A stretch of DNA of 64,000 nucleotides from an uncultured Ignavibacteriaceae bacterium (GTDB taxonomy: Bacteria; Bacteroidota; Ignavibacteria; UBA10030; BY39). Positions 3,332 to 52,098 of the stretch are shown here, piece by piece. Each line of letters starts with the position of its first letter. Positions within the stretch are counted from its first letter, which is position 1. The notes under the pieces were generated by a model that worked only from the letters and a program-made list of their open reading frames with translations, did not search any database and was not told the DNA's origin. The stretch spans positions 77,278 through 141,277 of the forward strand of contig CAZOQB010000008.1 in assembly GCA_964581995.1 (NCBI GenBank). Reading direction: 5' to 3'. The position numbers were made by a program, and so were the translations under genes.

Positions 3332-3835
3332 ATGAATAAAGCAAGACAACCAAAATTAGATATAGCACGAACACAAACTGAAACGGTGCTCGAGTTTTTA
3401 AGCGGAGGCATTCTCCTTTTTTTATTCTTTTTGATGTTTCAAAACTGGACCGAAATCCCAGAGTTAATCCCCACGCATTTTGGTGTTTCCGGTAAAGTGG
3501 ATACATGGGGAAGTAAATATACAATTCTTCTTATTCCATCAATCACACTTCTTATCTATGTTGGGCTTACGATACTTTACCGTTTCCCTCACGTATACAA
3601 TTATCCATGGCGAATCACAGATGAGAACGCGACAAGGCAATACATGCTCGCTCGTACTTTTCTGTGCTGGTTAAAATTCGAGCTTGTCGTTCTATTTACC
3701 TGTATCGAATGGACAATAATTCAAGTCGCATTTGGAAAGTCAAGTGGTTTAGGGATCGGATTCCTTCCTTTTTTTATGATAATAGTTTTCGGGACTATCG
3801 GAATTTATTTCTGGCTTGCCTACAAGGCACGCTGA
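3332..3835 (+). CDS. DUF1648 domain membrane protein
   Basis: IPTHFGVSGKVDTWGSK motif plus four TM segments; start reassigned to the ATG at 3332 downstream of the VOC stop. Confidence 0.8.
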   Translation: MNKARQPKLDIARTQTETVLEFLSGGILLFLFFLMFQNWTEIPELIPTHFGVSGKVDTWGSKYTILLIPSITLLIYVGLTILYRFPHVYNYPWRITDENATRQYMLARTFLCWLKFELVVLFTCIEWTIIQVAFGKSSGLGIGFLPFFMIIVFGTIGIYFWLAYKAR

Positions 3836-3910: not shown

Positions 3911-4960
3911 ATGCGTAAATCAGATATTACATCCCCTGAGCAATTTGAAGGCGAAGTTGAGCTTGACCAAACTTTACGCCCGCTTAAGTTTACCGATTTT
4001 TACGGTCAAGAAAAGATTGTCAGTAACCTGAAAGTGTTCATCGCCGCAGCAAAAAATCGGAATGAAACACTCGACCACGTCTTACTTACCGGTCCTCCCG
4101 GACTTGGCAAAACGACTCTTGCTTATATAATTGCAGCCGAGATGGGAAGCAACATAAAAATTACTTCAGGACCCGCAATAGATAAACCCTACAACCTCGC
4201 AGGCATTCTCACCAGCTTAAGTAGTGGCGATGTTTTGTTCATCGATGAAATCCATCGGCTTAATCCTGTTGTTGAAGAATATCTTTATCCCGCGATGGAA
4301 GATTTTGTTATCGACATTGTACTCGACTCAGGACCTAATGCGCGCAATGTTCAGCTCAAGCTTCCAAAATTTACACTTGTCGGCGCTACAACCCGCTCAG
4401 GGTTACTTACTGCTCCATTGCGTTCACGCTTTGGCGTAACGAATAGGTTGGATTACTACGATTCTGAAACTCTTTCCAAAATAATAAAGCGATCATCGGA
4501 AATTCTGAACGTTGAAATAACCGATGACGGAATTCAAACTATTTCTACTCGCTCACGCGGCACACCTCGTATCTCCAACCGATTACTAAAGCGATGCAGA
4601 GATTTTGCTCAGGCAGATAAAAATCTTAAATTGCATAAAGGTGTCATTAATAAAGAAGTGGCTGAGTATTCACTTAAAGCCCTCGAGGTTGACAGCCGGG
4701 GTTTGGATGAAATGGATAAGCGAATAATAACAACAATCATCGAAAAATTCGCCGGCGGTCCTGTTGGACTTGCAACACTCTCTTCAGCGGTTAGTGAAGA
4801 TGCGGGCACGATAGAAGAAGTTTACGAACCGTATCTTTTGCAAGAAGGGTTTATACAAAGAACTCCGCGCGGACGAGAAGCAACAAAATTGGCATACGAA
4901 CACTTTAACTTGAAACGGAAAACGACAAGCCAGTCCACACTCGATTTCAAACAACAATGA
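3911..4960 (+). CDS. ruvB: Holliday junction branch migration helicase RuvB
   Basis: LRP..F..GQ, Walker [54 protein letters not shown]. Confidence 0.98.
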
Positions 4961-42246: not shown

Positions 42247-42276
42247 GACTTTGTTCAAAACTTGTCGGGGGTTGAG
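42247..42276 (+). repeat. 30-bp direct repeat, left copy
   Basis: GACTTTGTTCAAAACTTGTCGGGGGTTGAG, identical to 48539-48568. Confidence 0.95.
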
Positions 42277-42337
42277 ACCATTTTATAGACTTTTAGCACA
42301 GCCTCCATCACTCAGCGACAAATCCCAAATTAGAAAA

Positions 42338-42637
42338 TTATATAATCAATTTATTTTTATCAATCTCTTTCATAATCCTCTCCGTCTCTGCAAGCGCGAC
42401 AATCATTTTCTGATAATGCTCGATATCGGCATTGGTAAGTGTACGACCTTTACGATCCTTTAGCCATTTCTGTGCAGGTTGGTAGCCGCCGATGTAGAAG
42501 TTCCAAGCAGTTTCTGGGACATTACCAAAGTATTGGTCTCTGTTCATAAATACTTTGTTATCTTTGTACACCAATTTCTCAACAGTGTCTGAGCCGTTTA
42601 CCGGATATGTAGTAATAAATTTATTTACTTTCGGCTC
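42338..42637 (-). pseudogene. C-terminal fragment of the single-chain R-M gene
   Basis: EPKVNKF..WNFYIGGYQPAQKWLKDR..KNKLII; about 16 differences over about 98 aa versus the end of ORF 44818-47892. Confidence 0.92.
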
Positions 42638-43917: not shown

Positions 43918-44799
43918 CTACTTTTTTAACCATGAGATTATTTTTGAATTTATATCGGTTCTTACCTTTCTGAGTTCATGATCATCATTCAACATATGAA
44001 TCTCCAGATTTGCTGCTCCCTGCTTTTGCAGCGAACGATAAAGCGGAAGAATGTGGTCTTCAATTGTTACACCAGAATCGAGCCAGCCACCGAATAAAAG
44101 TATATCCTTTTTCGCAAGCTTATCTGCAAAATTTTTAAGGTTATATTCCTCTTTATGTTGTAACAACCATTCGTAAGATGCTTTCCCTCCTGGTCCACGG
44201 GATCTGGATGTATCCGACATGCACCTGTCCAGGATTCGTTCATGTAATCTCCTGAAATCAAGATCTTGTTCATACATCGTGGCCCAAACACTCAAATCTG
44301 CACCCGCAATCGAACATACTTTCCTGACAGAATTATCGTATAGGGAACCTAACAGAGCCAGTCCACCCCCATAGCTGTTGCCAATTAATGATATATTTGA
44401 TGTATCAATAGAATATTTCTTTATTGTTTGATCCAATTTTAGGAAATCAATCGCTGAATTTACATTTTTAAGTGAAGTCTCCGGTGACCAAATTCCTTTA
44501 CTTGACCATGTACCACTATAACTGAAGGTAAGGACATTAAAACCAGCTTCTGCTAGTGTATGTGCAAGTTCAAATATTAAATAATCTTTTCCGCAATAGC
44601 CATGCAGTAAAATCACTGTTGAGGAAAATTCTTTCGCCTTAGCTTTGTAGAACCAACCATGAATATTATCTCCGTAACTGTTAAAGTTAATTTCATTGGG
44701 ATTATCTGTTTCATTCTGTGCAAGTAGTAATGAAACTGGCAAAAAATAAAGAATTATTAACAGAAAAACTAGATTAGTAAAACAATTCTTTTTTTTCAT
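43918..44799 (-). CDS. Exported alpha/beta hydrolase
   Basis: Signal peptide; LLHGYCG, SYSGTWSSKG, nucleophile GNSYGG, late D and DH residues. Confidence 0.85.
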   Translation of the reverse strand: MKKKNCFTNLVFLLIILYFLPVSLLLAQNETDNPNEINFNSYGDNIHGWFYKAKAKEFSSTVILLHGYCGKDYLIFELAHTLAEAGFNVLTFSYSGTWSSKGIWSPETSLKNVNSAIDFLKLDQTIKKYSIDTSNISLIGNSYGGGLALLGSLYDNSVRKVCSIAGADLSVWATMYEQDLDFRRLHERILDRCMSDTSRSRGPGGKASYEWLLQHKEEYNLKNFADKLAKKDILLFGGWLDSGVTIEDHILPLYRSLQKQGAANLEIHMLNDDHELRKVRTDINSKIISWLKK

Positions 44800-44817
44800 T
44801 TTATTTCCCCCTTATAA

Positions 44818-47800
44818 TTAAACAATCAATTTACTTTTATCGACCTCTTTCATAATCCTCTCCGTCTCTGCAAGTGCCACAATTATTTTCTGATAATGCT
44901 CGATATCGGTGTTTGTAAGAGTTCTGCCATTGCGGTCTTTAAGCCATTTCTGTGCTGGCTGATAGCCGCCGATGTAAAAGTTCCACGCAGATTCCGGGAC
45001 TTTGCCAAAGTACTGGTCTTTGTTGATATAAACACAAGAGTCTTTGTAAATTATTTTTTCGACTGTATCTGAGCCGCTTACAGGATAGGTTGTTATAAAC
45101 TTATTTACCTTAGGTGATTCGAGGAGATGGAGTGAACGCAATTCAGCGCCAAGGGCAACAAGTTTTTTAAAACTCTTTGCATCTTTTGGATACGGCACAC
45201 GCGGGAAATCTATTTTTAAAAACTCTTTGTATTTCTCGCGATAACTCGGTGAGTGTAGAACTGCATAGATATAATCAAGAATATCTTCGGGAGTAACTTT
45301 GCCGACAATCTTTTCTATCTCTTTAACAATTTCTTTTTTGAGATTTGGAATTTTTGATCCGTCTTCGGCATATACATAGAGGGGTAATAATGATTCGCTA
45401 CCCTTGTTATCAGATCGTATGTAGCCATCTGCCATAATTTTATTGGATATGAAGAAGTATGACGTTTTATCTTCTGCCATCTGACGACGAACAACCAATC
45501 CGACATTCTCTTGTAACGAGTGCTTCATTATCTGGTATCTGGACCGCTCGATAAAATCATCGTGATAGTAAATAAATCGATTATCAAATGGGCGATAACT
45601 AATTGGTACTAAATTTTTATCATCATAATTATGTTTTAAAGCATTTATAGCTCGCCAGTTCATATTTTCTTTTAGTCCAAATTTTATCATTGCCTCTTGT
45701 GGCGTTGCACTCGAAAGAAAACCATTGATTCGTTTTTTAAGAATTTTATTATCGTAATCAATTACAAAATCGTCGCGTGAAGTTACAATACCTACACTTG
45801 AAATAGAGAATAGATCGGCAACGGAAAATCCCTTTTTATACTCACCCAAAATATTTGTATCCCGAACAACCCATTCATAATTTGGACTTGATGGAGTAAT
45901 GGATTTCCATTTTACCGAATCGATTGAATTAGTATTAAGAAACTCAAACTTTGATTGGCGAGTGCCGAAACTATCTGCAAGAAATATCCTAGTGGCTTTA
46001 TTCTTACTAGCTTTCCTTCTTATTCCCAAGAAGATCGCGACGCCCTGTTTAATATCAAAGACATTTTTATCTTCACTTCCATCTGGTGCTTTCTCTTTTT
46101 TATTGGCGTTACCGTGCAAGTCAAGCACATATATTTCATCAAATGTACTCATAAGATGATAGCGCATTCCGCGAAATGTCGGGTTGTCAATATATCCATG
46201 AGCAGTAATCATTGCTACGATACCCTCACCCGTTTTTTCAATCATGCTTTCGGCAAATCTGATAAATTTCACATAGTCGTCACTTAGCCATTTAGAATTC
46301 CGTTCCTGTAATTTTCCACCCGATGGTTCTGTTTTATAGACATCATTGCCAGTATATGAGGCATTGCTTGATTCACCAGAATACGGTGGGTTACCAATTA
46401 CTACCATAATAGGCGATTCGTTCTTTATAACCGATGCTTCTTTGGATTCATCTGCAATACTTTCAGCAAAACCAAAACCAGTAAACAGGTCTGCTTTGGT
46501 CGCACCTTCTTCGAGAGAATTTGTAAGATAAATACCAAGCCGGCGGTTAAAATATTTAAATCCCGTTTCTTTAAACGCCATACTCAACTTCAGGTGGGCT
46601 ATAGTATATGGCGCCATCATAAGCTCAAATCCGTGCAGTCGCGGCAGCAAATCGTTATGCACGTATGTGGTCCAGCGCCCCTTCTGTCCATCCTTAAGTA
46701 ACCGTTCGTAGATTATACGAATAACAGCGCTAATGAATGTGCCTGTCCCGACAGCCGGATCAAGAACCTGAACCCGGTGCAGACCGGTTGCTGTTTTTGA
46801 TGTGTCGGCTAAACCGGAAGCGAGACCAAAATCTTTTTCAAGTAAGTAATCAACAGAACGCACAATGAACCGCACCACCGGCAGAGGCGTATAAAACGCA
46901 CCCATCTTTTTCCTGAGTTCGGGATCGTATTCTTTTAAAAAGTCTTCATAAAAATGAATTACGGGGTCGGGTCCCTCTTGCGTTTTTCCCCACGAATCAT
47001 CTTTGAAATATTGCTTCATCAACTCCGGAACATCGGCATGGGAAAAAACCGAGCACAACTCATTTACAATATACTCAAGCCGTTTGTCAAAATTTGGTCC
47101 AACTATGTGGTCAAAGAAATGCCGAAGCAGAGGGTTTGATGCCGGCACGAGGTCGCGGGCTTCCTGCCGTGTAAAGTTTTCAGGCGTTGTATCGTGATAC
47201 CTTGCTACAAAAAGACCATAGACAAGAGTTTGCGCATACATATCCGCGAAAGATTCTTCTGTAAGGTCGTGCACAAGAAGTTTTTTAATCGTATCATGTA
47301 CACGTATTATCTCAGCGTTTTTTTCCGACTTATTTGAAAGAAATTGTTTGACGTTATCCCGTATCCTTTGCGCTTTACCACCCATAATTTTTGATAAGTG
47401 CTCTCCCGACCGGATCGGTTCTTTATGCGATTGCGTGAAATCAACTAATGTCTTGGCAACGTGGTCAAAATTTTCCGGTATAGCTACAATCTTTCTATGC
47501 TTAATATCATAATCCGCAATCTTGATTGGAGTTTGATAGGATAAACCGTTTCTGTAAAAACGAAATTCAACATAATCTGTCAGAACTAAATTGGCATAGC
47601 CAAAATATCTTGCCATCTGCTCGGACTTCTCCACTTTATCCAAAGACACGCCAATATCTTTCGCTTCGATATATAAAATTGGCACATCGTGGTTAAGTAC
47701 AACAAAGTCCGGCTTGTTCCCTTGCTTTGCTTTTGCATCGTGATCTATACGCCGCACATTGATTGACTCGAAAATTCCCTTTAATAAAATTTCAAAGTCG

Positions 47801-47892
47801 GTGCGGTAACCCATCTCGCTCGTTTCCTCGTGCGCGAATTTGGAGGAGATGGATTTAATATAATTTTCGAAAATATTTTGCATAGATTTCAA
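44818..47892 (-). CDS. Single-chain restriction-modification enzyme (N6 methylase, type IIG/ISP-like C-terminus)
   Basis: N-terminal KPDF..IEAK nuclease motif; GAFYTP, LDPAVGTGTF, IGNPPY; C-terminal DFPRVP..IGGYQPAQKWLKDR. Confidence 0.92.
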   Translation of the reverse strand: MKSMQNIFENYIKSISSKFAHEETSEMGYRTDFEILLKGIFESINVRRIDHDAKAKQGNKPDFVVLNHDVPILYIEAKDIGVSLDKVEKSEQMARYFGYANLVLTDYVEFRFYRNGLSYQTPIKIADYDIKHRKIVAIPENFDHVAKTLVDFTQSHKEPIRSGEHLSKIMGGKAQRIRDNVKQFLSNKSEKNAEIIRVHDTIKKLLVHDLTEESFADMYAQTLVYGLFVARYHDTTPENFTRQEARDLVPASNPLLRHFFDHIVGPNFDKRLEYIVNELCSVFSHADVPELMKQYFKDDSWGKTQEGPDPVIHFYEDFLKEYDPELRKKMGAFYTPLPVVRFIVRSVDYLLEKDFGLASGLADTSKTATGLHRVQVLDPAVGTGTFISAVIRIIYERLLKDGQKGRWTTYVHNDLLPRLHGFELMMAPYTIAHLKLSMAFKETGFKYFNRRLGIYLTNSLEEGATKADLFTGFGFAESIADESKEASVIKNESPIMVVIGNPPYSGESSNASYTGNDVYKTEPSGGKLQERNSKWLSDDYVKFIRFAESMIEKTGEGIVAMITAHGYIDNPTFRGMRYHLMSTFDEIYVLDLHGNANKKEKAPDGSEDKNVFDIKQGVAIFLGIRRKASKNKATRIFLADSFGTRQSKFEFLNTNSIDSVKWKSITPSSPNYEWVVRDTNILGEYKKGFSVADLFSISSVGIVTSRDDFVIDYDNKILKKRINGFLSSATPQEAMIKFGLKENMNWRAINALKHNYDDKNLVPISYRPFDNRFIYYHDDFIERSRYQIMKHSLQENVGLVVRRQMAEDKTSYFFISNKIMADGYIRSDNKGSESLLPLYVYAEDGSKIPNLKKEIVKEIEKIVGKVTPEDILDYIYAVLHSPSYREKYKEFLKIDFPRVPYPKDAKSFKKLVALGAELRSLHLLESPKVNKFITTYPVSGSDTVEKIIYKDSCVYINKDQYFGKVPESAWNFYIGGYQPAQKWLKDRNGRTLTNTDIEHYQKIIVALAETERIMKEVDKSKLIV

Positions 47893-47907
47893 AAAAGACG
47901 TGTTTGT

Positions 47908-48129
47908 TCAGGACTCGAATTCCTTTGTTGGCAGATGCGATTGACGCATAATGGATTTCAGAGTTCCGAATTTGATCTCTTCGTGGTTAGGAACGGGAAC
48001 AGTAATTGTTGAGGAGCCGGTTTTCTTCTGCATAATAATGTGGCTCCCACGCTGACGAACTTTCTGAAAACCGTGTTTGGAAAGGATATGACAGACCTCT
48101 TTGCCAGAGAGGATTCGCATTTTAGCCAA
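47908..48129 (-). CDS. hicA: HicA family toxin
   Basis: RQRGSHIIMQK..TVPVPNHEEIKFGTLKSIMRQ. Confidence 0.9.
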   Translation of the reverse strand: MAKMRILSGKEVCHILSKHGFQKVRQRGSHIIMQKKTGSSTITVPVPNHEEIKFGTLKSIMRQSHLPTKEFES

Positions 48130-48349
48130 CGGCTACCTCTAAGCGAGTGACAAAAACTTCGTCATGCAAGCGTTCACGAATTTCTTTACTTGAAGCCGTT
48201 TCAAAAAATAATTCGATTGCTTCTTTGAGATTCTTTCGAGCCTCTTCGACGGTTTCACCCTGACTGGCAATATCGAGTTCAGGACATAGAGCAACATACA
48301 TATTGTCCTCTCGTTCAATGACAGCTGTAAATTGATGTCTTTTCGGCAT
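48122..48349 (-). CDS. hicB: HicB family antitoxin (short form)
   Basis: YVALCPELDIASQGETVEEARKNLKEAIELF; overlaps hicA. Confidence 0.9.
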   Translation of the reverse strand: MPKRHQFTAVIEREDNMYVALCPELDIASQGETVEEARKNLKEAIELFFETASSKEIRERLHDEVFVTRLEVAVG

Positions 48350-48457
48350 TTTAAAAACCTTCTTTCTTGATTGATCTGGAATTAATGATACTATAAAGTT
48401 AATATAGCATACATTCCCTAAAATGTCAATGTGAGAGGTTTGAGGTTGGGTAGTTGC

Positions 48458-48522
48458 GGACAGACTGAAAGTCCGTCCTACCGGGTACGATTCAACCGGT
48501 ACGACATGCTTTTAGCATGTCG
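48458..48522. repeat. GTAG-type REP hairpins
   Basis: Minus strand GTAGGACGGACTTTCAGTCTGTCC; GTACGACATGCTTTTAGCATGTCG. Confidence 0.7.
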
Positions 48523-48538
48523 ATAGGCAGAGAAGGGG

Positions 48539-48568
48539 GACTTTGTTCAAAACTTGTCGGGGGTTGAG
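48539..48568 (+). repeat. 30-bp direct repeat, right copy
   Basis: Identical to 42247-42276. Confidence 0.95.
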
Positions 48569-48616
48569 TTCAAATGTTTTCGCTCAGCTTCTATCCCGTT
48601 AACCGGAAATAATAAA

Positions 48617-48706
48617 CGGGCCGAAGCTCTGTCTGCGCGCTATTTTTGGTAGGAACGCACAGACAGGCTTCATTTAAAGTATCACGGGAGGAATGATACT
48701 TACCCT
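48617..48706. repeat. 90-bp structured direct repeat, left copy
   Basis: Identical to 50392-50481; two hairpins GAAGC-TCTGTCTGCG..CGCACAGACAGGCTTC and AAGTATCA..TGATACTT. Confidence 0.97.
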
Positions 48707-48731
48707 TGAATTATTATTACATTCCAGCTTA

Positions 48732-50195
48732 TCATCTCATCAATATCATTTTCTTGGTCTCAATAAAAACTTGTTCTGAGAGAAGCGAAGGATCAACGGC
48801 AACTAATCTGTAGTAATACACACCGCTTGTTACACCTCCTGCGTTCCAGAATAAAGAGTATTCACCTTTTTCTTTCTTCTCTTGAGCGAGTGTTGCTACT
48901 TCCCTGCCCAACAGGTCATACACTTTTAGCGTAATATAACTTTCTCTTGGTACTGAGAAAGATATTTTTGTTTGTGGATTGAAGGGATTTGGATAATTCG
49001 CAGCTAATGCGAAGCTGCCAGTAACATTTGCTCGTTCGTTTACATCGGTGATAAGCATTTGCCAAGTAAGGGTATCTTTCTGGGAATTCTGCCATGCGCT
49101 GCTGTTCCATGTTTGGCATAATTCCTCTGTTATGTTTTTATTTGCATCGTAGGTGTAAGTGTATTTCAACCAATTCACCCACAAACTAGCGTTCCACGTT
49201 TGGTATAACACCTCTGTCCTGTTTTTATTTGAATCATAGGTGTGACTGGATTTAGTATCATTCACCCACGAAGTAGCGTCCCATGTTTGGTATAACCAGT
49301 CTGTCATGTTTCCATTTGCATCGTAGGTGTAAGTGTGTTTGTAAATATCCTCCCACAAACTGCCGTCCCATGTTTGGCATAACCAGTCTGTCATGTTTCC
49401 ATTTGCATCGTAGGTGTAAGTGTGTTTAGTCTCATTCACCCACGAACTTGTGTTCCATGTTTGGTATAACACCTCTGTCCTGTTTTTATTTGAATCATAG
49501 GTGTAGCTGGATTTAGTCTCATTCACCCACGAACTAGTGTTCCAGTTTTGGCATAACGCCTCTATCCTGTTTTTATTTGAATCATAGGTGTAACTGGATT
49601 TAAACTCATTCTCCCACACACTGCCGTTCCATGTTTGGCATAACATGTCTGTCGTGTTTCCATTTGCATCGTAGGTGTAACTGTATTTCACCCAATTCAC
49701 CCACAAACTGTCGTTCCATATTTGGTCTAACCAGTCTGTCATTTTTTCATTTGCATCGTAGGTGTAAGTGTGTTTAGTCTCATTCACCCACACACTGCCG
49801 TCCCATGTTTGGTATAACCAGTCTGTCATTTTTCCATTTGCATCGTAGGTGTAAGTGTGTTTAGTCTCATTCACCCACACATTTGTAAGCGTATCCCATA
49901 ACTGAAATACATCAGAAATCTGTAGATACATCGTATCTGATAGAACCTTAGTAAACTTATCTACTCTTCTATCGGCAAATTTTATATTGAAAAATAATCC
50001 CAGCTCATTCCGGAACTGTTGTTCAATGTGAATTCTAGGATGATGAGGGTATTGCGCGCGCGCGCTATCCACAATCTTTTCCTGAATGAACGTCTGGCAA
50101 TTGTATATGTTTTCCTTTTTCTGAGAGAACACCAACACTGTAAAAGAAACTGTAAGCATCACGATGGCGCTAAAAACAATCGCAAAGCTCTTCAT
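48732..50195 (-). CDS. T9SS type A sorting-domain protein with nine 29-aa repeats
   Basis: Signal peptide; repeats like ETKHTYTYDANGNMTDWLYQTWDGSVWVN; C-terminal NYPNPFNPQTKISF..LKVYDLLGREVATL. Confidence 0.9.
   Translation of the reverse strand: MKSFAIVFSAIVMLTVSFTVLVFSQKKENIYNCQTFIQEKIVDSARAQYPHHPRIHIEQQFRNELGLFFNIKFADRRVDKFTKVLSDTMYLQISDVFQLWDTLTNVWVNETKHTYTYDANGKMTDWLYQTWDGSVWVNETKHTYTYDANEKMTDWLDQIWNDSLWVNWVKYSYTYDANGNTTDMLCQTWNGSVWENEFKSSYTYDSNKNRIEALCQNWNTSSWVNETKSSYTYDSNKNRTEVLYQTWNTSSWVNETKHTYTYDANGNMTDWLCQTWDGSLWEDIYKHTYTYDANGNMTDWLYQTWDATSWVNDTKSSHTYDSNKNRTEVLYQTWNASLWVNWLKYTYTYDANKNITEELCQTWNSSAWQNSQKDTLTWQMLITDVNERANVTGSFALAANYPNPFNPQTKISFSVPRESYITLKVYDLLGREVATLAQEKKEKGEYSLFWNAGGVTSGVYYYRLVAVDPSLLSEQVFIETKKMILMR
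49085..49880. repeat. 87-bp intragenic tandem repeats
   Basis: TTAGTCTCATTCACCCAC recurs at 49774 and 49861 (period 87); about nine units. Confidence 0.9.
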
Positions 50196-50313
50196 AAGCT
50201 CACCTTATATTTTGTGTTTGAATGATGATTTGAAATAAAAAATAATGAAAATAAAACAGCTTGTCAAGAAAAAAACGAAGAAAATAGTAAATAATATTGT
50301 TTCCAGAAGAAAT

Positions 50314-50350
50314 AAAAAAGCCACAAACATGTAACAGACATTTGTGGCTT
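50314..50350 (-). terminator. Intrinsic terminator in the leader of the T9SS gene
   Basis: Minus strand AAGCCACAAA..TTTGTGGCTT followed by T run, about 120 nt upstream of the start at 50195. Confidence 0.8.
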
Positions 50351-50391
50351 GAAGCGGGAACGCTTTATAAACAAGAAACCTAAAAAATAAT

Positions 50392-50481
50392 CGGGCCGAA
50401 GCTCTGTCTGCGCGCTATTTTTGGTAGGAACGCACAGACAGGCTTCATTTAAAGTATCACGGGAGGAATGATACTTACCCT
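50392..50481. repeat. 90-bp structured direct repeat, right copy
   Basis: Identical to 48617-48706. Confidence 0.97.
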
Positions 50482-50544
50482 AATATCATTTTCATTAAAA
50501 ATATTACCGTTACCTTCATAAATCTCCTACAGTATTTCACACTC

Positions 50545-50627
50545 TGTGGACCCTGTAGGACTTGTCCCGAAGGGATTCCGTGAATAAAAGACTTTTTATG
50601 AACGGAAAACCTACGACCACACGGATT
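50545..50627 (-). pseudogene. Copy of the tRNA 3' half with a 43-nt hairpin insertion in the T-loop
   Basis: TGTGGACCCTGTAGGACTTG [TCCCGAAGGGA TTCCGT..ACGGAA] AACCTACGACC matches the tRNA sequence TGTGGGCCCTGTAGGACTTGAACCTACGACC. Confidence 0.8.
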
Positions 50628-50635
50628 GTTTTTTG

Positions 50636-50709
50636 TGGGCCCTGTAGGACTTGAACCTACGACCCGCAGATTATGAGTCTGCTGCTCTAACCAACTGAGC
50701 TAAGGGCCC
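50636..50709 (-). tRNA. tRNA with CAT anticodon, most likely tRNA-Ile2 (lysidine type)
   Basis: GGGCCCTTAGCTCAGTTGGTTAGAGCAGCAGACTCATAATCTGCGGGTCGTAGGTTCAAGTCCTACAGGGCCCA; cloverleaf intact; resembles ileX-type tRNAs; CCA not encoded. Confidence 0.92.
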
Positions 50710-50776
50710 CGCATGTTGCTCATATTTCGTTTAAAATATAAGAATTTCAGTTAAAAAAAACAAGGAGAGAATTTAT

Positions 50777-51334
50777 CTAATCCTTTTTCAGCAAAACAGC
50801 GTGGCTCCGCTTTATGATTAGTGTATCGACTTGTGTAAATCCGGCAGCAACGGCAAGCGAAAGTGTTTCGTCAAACTCTTCTTTGGTTACATGTCCGGTA
50901 GGCTCGGAAACCAAAACTATTCCACCTTTTTTGAGCGAATTAAAAATCTCAACGAAAAAATTTTTCGGGTCGGGAATTTCATGCACAACGGCAAACGCCA
51001 GAGCAAAATCTATTTTACCGGTCAGGTCTTCAATCTTAAGCGAATCCTGCGTACACAACCGCGTGTCAATCCGCCATAACAACCCTGCTTTATCAGCACG
51101 CTTCCGGAGACTGTTTAACATTCTTTCCTGCAATTCCACACATATAACCTGCCCGGACTCACCCACTAATTTCGCCAGCGGTAAGCTAAAGAATCCCATA
51201 CCCGGACCGATTTCGAGGACAGTCATTCCCGCTTTGACGTACGGATTTAAAATGTTTTCGGGATGTTGAAATAACCGCCGAAAAGGACTTGCCAGCAGAT
51301 AACCTATGTACCACGGGCACACATGATTTTCCAT
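50777..51334 (-). CDS. Class I SAM-dependent methyltransferase
   Basis: VLEIGPGMGFF, VELQERML, FAVVHEIPD..LKKGG. Confidence 0.9.
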   Translation of the reverse strand: MENHVCPWYIGYLLASPFRRLFQHPENILNPYVKAGMTVLEIGPGMGFFSLPLAKLVGESGQVICVELQERMLNSLRKRADKAGLLWRIDTRLCTQDSLKIEDLTGKIDFALAFAVVHEIPDPKNFFVEIFNSLKKGGIVLVSEPTGHVTKEEFDETLSLAVAAGFTQVDTLIIKRSHAVLLKKD

Positions 51335-51372
51335 AAAAATTTTCTTTCTCTGAATGTATGGATTTACAAATT

Positions 51373-52098
51373 CTATTTCATTTGTTTAATCCGAATTTCC
51401 GTATTTTTATTTTTCGATAAAAGTTCTTTCAGTGTTGATAAATCAGTATCGCCGTAGTGGTATGGATATAAGATTTTAGGATTAAATTTACCCACAGCAT
51501 CGGCAACTTGTTCGGGCGTCATTGTGTAAGGCTGGTTCATCGGTAGAAATGCGATATCAATATTTTTTAAGTTAGCCATTTCAGGAATATTTTCAGTGTC
51601 GCCGGCAATATAAATTCTGTTCCTACCGATTGTTAACACATAACCATTGTCCCTGCCTTTAGGATGAAACTTCAATCTGTCGGCGGTTGTATTGTAAGCC
51701 GGTACCGCCTCGATTACAATTCCTTCCACCGTCTTCTTATCTCCGTTTTTCATCACCATTCCCTTTTTTATAATTTCGAACACCGCACCGTTCACAACCA
51801 TTTTTGTGTTCATTTTCGTAATCGAATTGATAGCTATCGTATCCAGATGGTCGGGATGCTGATGTGTTATTAGAATTAAATCAGCTTTCGGCTGCTTTGC
51901 ATAATTAGCCAGCTTGCTCCACGGATCGACGTGGATAATTTTATTGTTGAATTCAAACATCAAAGTCCCGTGTCCGATAAAATGGATAGTTAATTTGCCG
52001 GATAGCGTATCAAATGTATCTTTCTCGAATTGATTTTGAGAAATTGCCGGTGTGTTCATCAATAACACGCTGCACAGAAAAATAATTATCCTTTTCAT
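51373..52098 (-). CDS. Exported MBL-fold metallo-hydrolase
   Basis: Signal peptide; GHGT, ITHQHPDHLD, FHPKG, YIAGDT, PYHY. Confidence 0.88.
   Translation of the reverse strand: MKRIIIFLCSVLLMNTPAISQNQFEKDTFDTLSGKLTIHFIGHGTLMFEFNNKIIHVDPWSKLANYAKQPKADLILITHQHPDHLDTIAINSITKMNTKMVVNGAVFEIIKKGMVMKNGDKKTVEGIVIEAVPAYNTTADRLKFHPKGRDNGYVLTIGRNRIYIAGDTENIPEMANLKNIDIAFLPMNQPYTMTPEQVADAVGKFNPKILYPYHYGDTDLSTLKELLSKNKNTEIRIKQMK

Follow-up and report, generated by a model that had tools for sequence, protein, structure and literature searches.

The window and its 90-bp repeat

We have analysed a stretch of 64,000 nucleotides (the window) from an uncultured Ignavibacteriaceae bacterium, corresponding to positions 77,278 to 141,277 of the forward strand of contig CAZOQB010000008.1 in assembly GCA_964581995.1. 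A sequence of 90 bp occurs in it twice, at 48617-48706 (left copy) and 50392-50481 (right copy), with 100% identity and a start-to-start distance of 1775 bp. The initial annotation described two perfect copies around exactly one gene, and both the sequence identity and the open reading frame (ORF) content confirm this description. On the minus strand the order is tRNA-Met, partial copies of the tRNA 3' half, the right copy, a terminator, a promoter-like site, a gene for a repeat protein of the type IX secretion system (T9SS), the left copy and hicBA. The principal features are as follows.

50635..50709, minus strand: tRNA-Met (CAT), found by ARAGORN; 75.1 bits with the Rfam tRNA model
50387..50481, minus strand: small RNA (sRNA), right copy; covariance model R1, 107.9 bits, E 2.8e-23; 90-nt body identical to the left copy
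50318..50350, minus strand: canonical intrinsic terminator, a 13-pair stem followed by TTTTATTTCT, 41 nt 3' of the right copy
50239..50267, minus strand: promoter-like TTGACA-17-TATTTT, 5' of the T9SS gene; 10/12 consensus positions, a match to a sigma-70-like consensus only
48732..50195, minus strand: T9SS repeat-protein gene, the sole ORF between the copies; 487 aa; Pfam Por_Secre_tail, DUF3836 and RHS_repeat
48713..48740, minus strand: candidate left-copy promoter, ATGAGA-16-(TG)AATAAT; 9/12 consensus positions, with an extended -10 TG
48612..48706, minus strand: sRNA, left copy; covariance model R1, 108.7 bits, E 1.9e-23

Outside the repeat the likeness between the two sites persists for just ~10 nt, in an A/T-rich tail on the low-coordinate side. 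A 49-nt core of the repeat matches exactly two sites with three mismatches or fewer, against none expected from 100 shuffles, and neither blastn-short nor self-blast nor the R1 model, run unfiltered, detected a further copy in the window. An independent ENA assembly (L005), 98-99% identical to the window, holds both copies, and in three groundwater metagenome runs the contig of the shared element has ~1.6-2 times the depth of the unique flanks (13.6 against ~8, 14.4 against ~9.4 and 50.5 against ~25). An assembly artefact is therefore unlikely; the duplication is real, and this exact sequence is present exactly twice in the genome. A dispersed repeat of the repetitive extragenic palindrome (REP) or miniature inverted-repeat transposable element (MITE) type was rejected, there being two copies in 64 kb, a depth ~2 times that of the flanks and, as described below, synteny across lineages.

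Fold and transcribed strand

The RNA of the left copy, read from the minus strand, runs 5'-(A)GGGUAAG...GGCCCG-UUUAU-3' and folds with a free energy of -41 kcal/mol. A closing helix of 4 bp (P1) encloses hairpin A (8 bp) and hairpin B (16 bp), giving a compact three-way junction, and the two stems that had been described in the initial annotation are thus both found in the element. The parts, all on the minus strand, lie at the following positions.

48702-48705 (GGGU) with 48618..48621 (GCCC), minus strand: P1, left copy, from RNAalifold and single-sequence folds
50477-50480 with 50393-50396, minus strand: P1, right copy, predicted
48677..48701, minus strand: hairpin A, left copy; arms AAGUAUCA and UGAUACUU, loop UUCCUCCCG at 48685-48693
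50452-50476, minus strand: hairpin A, right copy; loop at 50460-50468
48623..48671, minus strand: hairpin B, left copy; 16 bp with a bulged A, loop UUCCUACCAAAAAUAG at 48640-48655
50398-50446, minus strand: hairpin B, right copy, identical to the left

The fold was assessed in an alignment of 13 distinct sequences from about ten lineages, the structure comprising P1, hairpin A and hairpin B with its bulged A. Standard pairs are found in 100% of the 364 pair cells. Two-sided compensatory changes occur at 8 pairs, all of them among the 16 of hairpin B; the observed pairing values were reached by none of 500 shuffles, and sliding the pairing partner by 1-3 columns left only 35-44% of the cells paired. 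RNAalifold independently predicts the same structure. Hairpin A is unchanged in 12 of the 13 sequences, and its lone change, from U-A to U·G, keeps the pair on the minus strand only. The bulged A of hairpin B is conserved, and the apical loop of this hairpin contains UCCUACC.

Several observations agree on the strand. Thirty-seven cells hold G·U pairs on the minus strand, which become A·C when read on the plus strand. The z-scores of the folding energy are -7.8, -5.0, -6.3 and -4.5 on the RNA strand and -4.3 and -0.7 on the opposite strand, the left copy giving -7.8 on the minus and -4.3 on the plus strand. The upstream neighbours (tRNA-Met, tRNA-Ser, a receiver-only response regulator or the T9SS gene) are all co-directional with the RNA strand, and in most members the 3' GGCCC(N) runs into a U-rich tract. 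Together these features indicate that the RNA is read from the minus strand. The element is very probably a structured RNA gene on this strand, and the RNA gene itself is well supported; the initial annotation was right in describing a folded element with a small-RNA layout. The GGA-type loops described in the initial annotation are present, but on the non-functional plus strand.

Three other readings of the fold were examined and rejected. A CsrA sponge of the CsrB/RsmZ type would have its GGA loops on the plus strand only, where there are 37 A·C mismatches and z-scores of -0.7 to -4.3 compared with -4.5 to -7.8 on the RNA strand. A small ORF is not favoured, as the internal AUG opens frames that differ in length and content among the members, and the substitutions track pairing rather than codons. 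An alternative 3' terminator hairpin, GGGCCG/CGGCCC, can be drawn in some of the canonical copies (see below) only, and the changes in its 5' arm have no counterpart in GGCCC, which is invariant; it was rejected as a conserved feature.

Homologues and conservation

When public collections were scanned for exact patterns, one copy each was recovered from a metagenome-assembled genome (MAG) of Ignavibacteriaceae (locus L001) and from three metagenome contigs (L002-L004). The long stem in these four loci differs from that of the window yet remains complementary. Since L002 and L004 have a receiver-only response regulator as neighbour, further loci were fetched through homologues of that protein; they were collected by the neighbouring protein and not by the RNA, so that the RNA sequences are unbiased. 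The element was found in the same intergenic gap in every locus that reaches it (L007, L008, L010-L017 and L019-L023), and in L009 and L018 the contig terminates within the 5' part of the element. The genes run in a conserved order: PAS histidine kinase, LuxR-type regulator, small hypothetical protein, receiver-only regulator (122-126 aa) and the element, followed by a regulator of 153-158 aa, a regulator of 127-143 aa, an aspartate kinase and an ABC transporter. The small hypothetical protein is missing from L007, L008, L009, L022 and L023, and in L007 and L008 a hypothetical protein of 138 aa replaces the 153-158-aa regulator. The ancestral copy is the one at this fixed position in a multi-response-regulator two-component gene cluster; we refer to copies of this type as canonical. 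Their loop B reads GGUCCUACCCCCUUAA, where the window copies have UUCCUACCAAAAAUAG, and the ancestral loop B carries UCCUACCCCCUU.

In nine regulator-cluster loci the mean pairwise identity of the RNA is 93.6%, compared with 67.5% for the DNA of the adjacent response-regulator gene and 44% for the third codon positions of that gene. The first 37 nt of the RNA are essentially invariant across these loci, and the intergenic DNA on either side of the RNA is not alignable among loci. Judging from these comparisons, the RNA is under strong purifying selection. The hosts found are Ignavibacteriaceae and "Bacteroidota bacterium" MAGs, the remaining loci being metagenome contigs. The RNA defines a family not catalogued before, from Ignavibacteria-type Bacteroidota; the family is new, the kind of sRNA known.

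The regions upstream of the canonical copies showed no -35/-10 pair at fixed spacing but only a TTTGTT...GTTAGAAA motif whose distance from the RNA varies. This motif, TTTGTT-N6-8-GTTAGAAA, lies between the receiver-only regulator gene and the sRNA in L002, L004, L007, L010, L014, L017, L019 and L003, at 15 to 77 nt from the RNA start, and may be a regulator-binding site. A second motif, ACCTCGTA ... AGTAnnT...CTTATTG(T/A)A, is conserved in the intergenic DNA that precedes the 153-aa response-regulator gene in many of the regulator-cluster loci (L010 at ~4690-4790, L014 at ~4715-4775, L021, L022 and L002, each time between the sRNA and this gene) and is probably an operator, a promoter or a structure of the 5' untranslated region.

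In L003 the place of the receiver-only regulator gene is taken by an IS110-family transposase gene (1506-2897; DEDD_Tnp_IS110 and Transposase_20), ~770 nt upstream of the sRNA. This transposase is an incidental insertion. A bridge RNA of the IS110 family was considered and rejected, as a transposase lies near the RNA in L003 only, ~770 nt away, and in none of the other loci checked.

Probable transcription units at the two window copies

The right copy and tRNA-Met, 153 nt upstream of it, share a strand and are possibly co-transcribed. A minus-strand terminator 41 nt past this copy, noted in the initial annotation, is confirmed at 50350-50318; it would halt read-through from tRNA-Met and from the right-copy sRNA, which would in this way have a back-up terminator of its own. 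The TTGACA-17-TATTTT match lies between the terminator and the T9SS gene, which makes the right copy and terminator a separate upstream unit and not a leader of that gene.

The position of the right copy, followed by a terminator and then a gene, had raised the possibility that the element is a cis-regulatory leader (riboswitch or attenuator) of the gene downstream, and the response-regulator operon downstream of the copies in the regulator clusters would suit such a role. The downstream gene nevertheless varies: it is the T9SS gene, hicB or a response regulator, there is none in L004, and in L001 it is a convergent TRAP transporter gene. These genes are unrelated and lie 107 to 330 nt from the element. 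In addition, a U-tract follows the element directly on its 3' side, the T9SS gene apparently has its own promoter, separated from the right copy by the terminator, and no Rfam riboswitch family matches. We regard a leader function as very improbable.

The left copy begins 25 nt past the T9SS-gene stop codon. Its candidate promoter is weak and in an AT-rich region; it ends 7 nt 5' of the RNA start and is placed within the last part of the T9SS coding sequence. The hicBA genes, beyond the left copy on the minus strand, have their own TTGACA-17-TATATT match at 48429-48401. Apart from the left copy, the stretch that leads from the T9SS stop codon to the hicBA promoter contains no terminator-like site. 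As the sole strong structure past the stop codon, the left copy probably also ends the T9SS transcript.

This last point leads to the question of whether the element might be nothing else, that is, a cis-acting 3'-end element (a branched terminator or an RNA-stabilising insulator behind genes and tRNAs) with no function in trans. It always lies 3' of a co-directional gene or tRNA (the 122-126-aa regulator, tRNA-Met, tRNA-Ser or the T9SS gene) and is then followed by a U-rich tract, and the stretch from the T9SS stop to the hicBA promoter offers no other terminator-like site. Terminators, on the other hand, do not hold their loops identical while the neighbouring genes diverge to ~67%; for the right copy a second, canonical terminator is needed 41 nt beyond it; and there are 2-3 copies per genome, where a generic terminator module would be common. 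A purely cis-acting element is accordingly given a low probability.

Comparison with known RNAs

Rfam 15 was scanned with E-values over 47500-51500 and over the short stretches 50300-50500 and L014:4540-4720, and at the gathering threshold over the whole window. Nothing but tRNA-Met was above threshold, so that the element belongs to no Rfam family at this level, and the statement in the initial annotation that it matches no attC, dif, CRISPR repeat or riboswitch holds. The only full-length matches on the RNA strand were obtained with L014, to 6C RNA (18.2 bits) and Scr3202 (19.9 bits), short of the respective gathering thresholds of 47 and 52 bits; the window copies gave no match at all. Full-text searches of the literature found no description of this RNA, and viral contigs, phages and plasmids contained no match to the element.

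RsaE/RoxS of Firmicutes is one of the structured sRNAs whose C-rich loops base-pair with G-rich motifs located at ribosome-binding sites or close to them. The closest counterparts in design are 6C RNA (RF01066; B11 in mycobacteria) and Scr3202 (RF02833), actinobacterial sRNAs of ~60-95 nt with two stable hairpins and C-rich apical loops. Two hairpins with conserved C-rich apical loops are common to these and the present RNA. They differ in that the present RNA comes from Bacteroidota/Ignavibacteria of ~39% GC rather than from high-GC Actinobacteria, has the loops UCCUCCC and UCCUACC(CCC) in place of a C6 run, and has a closing helix that turns the two hairpins into a three-way junction. The likeness to 6C and Scr3202 is one of design, not of descent. 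Neither sX13 nor RsaE/RoxS has sequence or covariance-model similarity to the present RNA, and sX13 differs from it in having three hairpins and an unstructured 5' region. The C-rich loops of 6C bind the G-rich ribosome-binding regions of mRNAs directly, with no need of a chaperone (PMC6486639), and sX13 of Xanthomonas, acting independently of Hfq, uses its C-rich apical loops to base-pair with G-rich motifs that lie at ribosome-binding sites or near them (PMC3771888).

Near-identical paralogous sRNA genes within one genome are familiar from Qrr1-5, PrrF1/2 and AbcR1/2, some of them in tandem and some under two-component or response-regulator control. The identical copies described here differ from these in bracketing a protein-coding gene, one of them also forming its 3' end.

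Proposed function

Each 90-bp repeat is very probably the gene of a structured RNA of ~90-95 nt transcribed from the minus strand. This RNA probably acts in trans as an sRNA. Our overall account, which we favour on balance, is that of a trans-acting base-pairing sRNA with C-rich loops directed at G-rich mRNA sites: the exposed loops UUCCUCCCG and UCCUACC(CCC), which resemble an anti-Shine-Dalgarno sequence, would pair with sites such as GGGAGGA, GGUAGGA and AAGGGGG at or near ribosome-binding sites, and the pairing would repress translation or stability, as with 6C, sX13 and RsaE/RoxS. The pairing of C-rich loops with G-rich mRNA sites is proposed by analogy with the loops of 6C and sX13 and, taken by itself, is a tentative though quite realistic suggestion. 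From its position in the multi-regulator signalling cluster, the canonical copy may act in the pathway concerned or be controlled by it.

A number of observations weigh against this account. Duplex scans of 49 gene starts in the window, and inspection by eye of the gene start regions in the regulator clusters, revealed no convincing G-rich complement. A Shine-Dalgarno (SD)-like 4-mer, even a weak one, is present at -18 to -4 in 16 of the 49 likely window genes, a low SD use like that of Bacteroidota, and an anti-SD-like seed therefore has few obvious partners. The 5' 37 nt are essentially invariant with their stems included, which exceeds what a short seed would need and would suit an RNA bound by a protein or the ribosome just as well. 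The window paralogues do not have the C5 run of loop B, and all four P1 pairs are invariant, so that covariation cannot test this helix. Homologues occur in four metatranscriptome runs, in contigs of depth 2-7 that include the flanks, which indicates presence in RNA libraries rather than a discrete transcript; DNA carry-over or read-through may account for contigs of this kind, and as evidence for expression they are weak. Finally, the promoter matches are weak, with no -35/-10 pair at conserved spacing, and the 5' end is only a predicted one.

Separately, a G-rich AAGGGG(G) is seen before the start codon of a few window genes, for example those at 43918-44799 and 51373-52098.

Some of the observations above bear on a rival account, in which the RNA is a decoy that binds a protein or the ribosome rather than an sRNA that acts by base-pairing. 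Hairpin A (AUCA-UU-CCUCC) and the UCCUACC loop would here mimic a C-rich ligand, for example the anti-SD tail of 16S rRNA, and the RNA would titrate a protein, or the few strong-SD mRNAs, in a lineage that hardly uses SD sequences. The three-way junction exposes two similar UCCUNCC loops, the 5' hairpin is nearly invariant, stem included, where the neighbouring gene is only ~67% identical, SD use in the window is low and the adjacent genes have no complementary target. Known RNAs of this build (6C, sX13), however, act by pairing. No gene for a partner protein is consistently adjacent, the neighbours being response regulators and not RNA-binding proteins, and the resemblance of the loops to what we take to be the sequence of the 16S tail is short, which also counts against a decoy. 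We consider a decoy unlikely, but the near-total invariance of hairpin A means that it stays a serious rival to the base-pairing sRNA.

Paralogues and origin of the duplication

The MAG with contig prefix CAYTID01 contains a canonical copy in the regulator cluster (L022) together with a variant, with altered loop B, 113 nt after tRNA-Ser (L001). Ignavibacteriaceae have extra, variant paralogues adjoining tRNA genes, and both window copies are of this variant type. The window organism probably has a canonical copy as well, given that L018 in run X3 has a depth of 24.2, compared with 24.8-25.7 for the window contigs. The extra copies are located after tRNA-Met, after tRNA-Ser and at the 3' end of a gene. 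Homology between the right copy, the left copy and that of L001 stops at the ends of the RNA, with no shared promoter or flank homology beyond it among the three. Just downstream of the tRNA-Ser-linked sRNA in L001 there are two repeats of ~82 bp (3494-3575 and 3662-3745; …AGTGAAAC.AAT.AC.AAGTCATCC.TTGGG…GAGTGTCTT..TGGTGAGTTTTTAGA…), which belong to a different dispersed family.

The stretch of 1751 bp at 48612-50362 comprises one sRNA copy, the T9SS gene, its promoter and the terminator. In run X3, where the main strain has a depth of 25, a contig of depth 20 carries the right copy's 29-nt 3' flank linked to ...CAACCGGAAATA, the sequence that also flanks the left copy, and this suggests a co-occurring strain without 48612-50362. 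The suggestion is tentative, since it comes from short assembler contigs. When loci were looked up by way of hicB, they either had both copies or came from contigs that break at the repeat, and a single-copy allele of the kind that the initial annotation had proposed to look for was not among them; the X3 contig is suggestive only. A metatranscriptome contig from another groundwater study has a diverged variant of the RNA directly after a 3' end like that of the T9SS gene, so that the linkage of gene and RNA is not unique to the window strain. The RNA was not found near the closest homologues of the T9SS protein (~50% identity, six loci), and the perfect identity of the two copies is thus ascribed to the module having been duplicated or inserted recently, or to gene conversion between paralogues. 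We propose that a module of terminator, promoter, T9SS gene and sRNA was duplicated or inserted 29 nt downstream of a resident sRNA copy, or that gene conversion took place.

The initial annotation had suggested a cassette border, and the repeat can indeed be likened to a recombination site acting at the DNA level (attC-like or a mobile-element end) that mobilises the T9SS gene. Two perfect direct repeats enclose one gene, the repeats form imperfect hairpins with a conserved extrahelical base as attC sites do, the X3 contig suggests a co-occurring strain without the 1751-bp module, and the locus is beside a tRNA with partial 3' copies, among restriction-modification (RM) and toxin-antitoxin genes. 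The element nevertheless differs from attC in that its ends lack GTTRRRY or RYYYAAC cores and that there is neither an integron integrase nor a cassette array. Selection for pairing acts on only one strand, as the G·U pairs show, and the loop sequence is conserved too. Relatives in about ten lineages have single copies at a fixed syntenic site with no constant integrase or transposase neighbour, the IS110-family gene being confined to L003 at ~770 nt, while the closest T9SS homologues have no element and no phage or plasmid matches it. The idea is largely refuted and its remaining probability very small: the two copies are not a recombination cassette, and nothing points to a site-specific cassette system.

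The transcript-sized homology and the placement at tRNAs and 3' ends may be compatible with RNA-mediated (retro-)duplication, or with targeted insertion into tRNA 3' flanks. A combined possibility, that the RNA gene spreads as an RNA-sized unit and that the RNA is an anti-SD mimic titrating the ribosome or a protein instead of a seed-pairing sRNA, seems to us improbable.

Other features of the region

The T9SS protein has an N-terminal hydrophobic segment, about ten 29-aa (87-bp) repeats of the YD/DUF3836 type and a C-terminal T9SS sorting domain, and on these grounds is predicted to be secreted cargo of this system. The 87-bp tandem repeats are found within 48999-49907 of the window and within 7140-8516 of L005. 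The protein is 487 aa long in the window and 458 aa in L005, which has one 87-bp repeat fewer, either as true variation or as an assembly collapse.

Just downstream of tRNA-Met there are partial copies of its 3' half, GTCGTAGGTT and, after a gap of ~47 nt, CAAGTCCTACAGGGTCCA (50545-50564, 50607-50623). One of these fragments is a 20-nt repeat with 95% identity and looks like a displaced fragment or the att-site scar of a past integration.

Genes within ~6 kb of the repeat encode RM, HicAB, methyltransferase, metallo-beta-lactamase-fold, Memo/AMMECR1 and hydrolase proteins. A 30-bp direct repeat, GACTTTGTTCAAAACTTGTCGGGGGTTGAG, at 42247-42276 and 48539-48568 flanks a block of 6.3 kb that contains an RM gene remnant, a hypothetical gene, an alpha/beta-hydrolase gene, a 1024-aa type IIG/ISP RM gene and hicAB. 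Read on the minus strand, this repeat forms a small hairpin with a C-rich loop, and a related motif lies downstream of the sRNA in L004. The 299 bp at 42336-42634 are 81% identical to 44816-45114, the 3' end of the type IIG RM gene; they appear to be the remnant of a second, replaced RM gene and suggest turnover of a defence island.

Significance

For annotation, a repeat that resembles the boundary of a mobile element or cassette is explained as copies of an RNA gene. The class of element is familiar, while the tRNA-adjacent paralogues and the transcript-sized homology are curious. If our account is right, the design of an sRNA with C-rich loops, represented in Actinobacteria, Firmicutes and Xanthomonas, would extend to a low-GC lineage that rarely uses SD sequences, and a host with such low SD use makes the question of what C-rich loops recognise directly testable. 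Almost nothing is known of riboregulation in Ignavibacteria and related uncultured Bacteroidota. Here there would be a clean sRNA family, supported by covariation and far better conserved than its protein-coding neighbours, inside a two-component signalling cluster, and as such an entry point to post-transcriptional control in Ignavibacteria-type bacteria.

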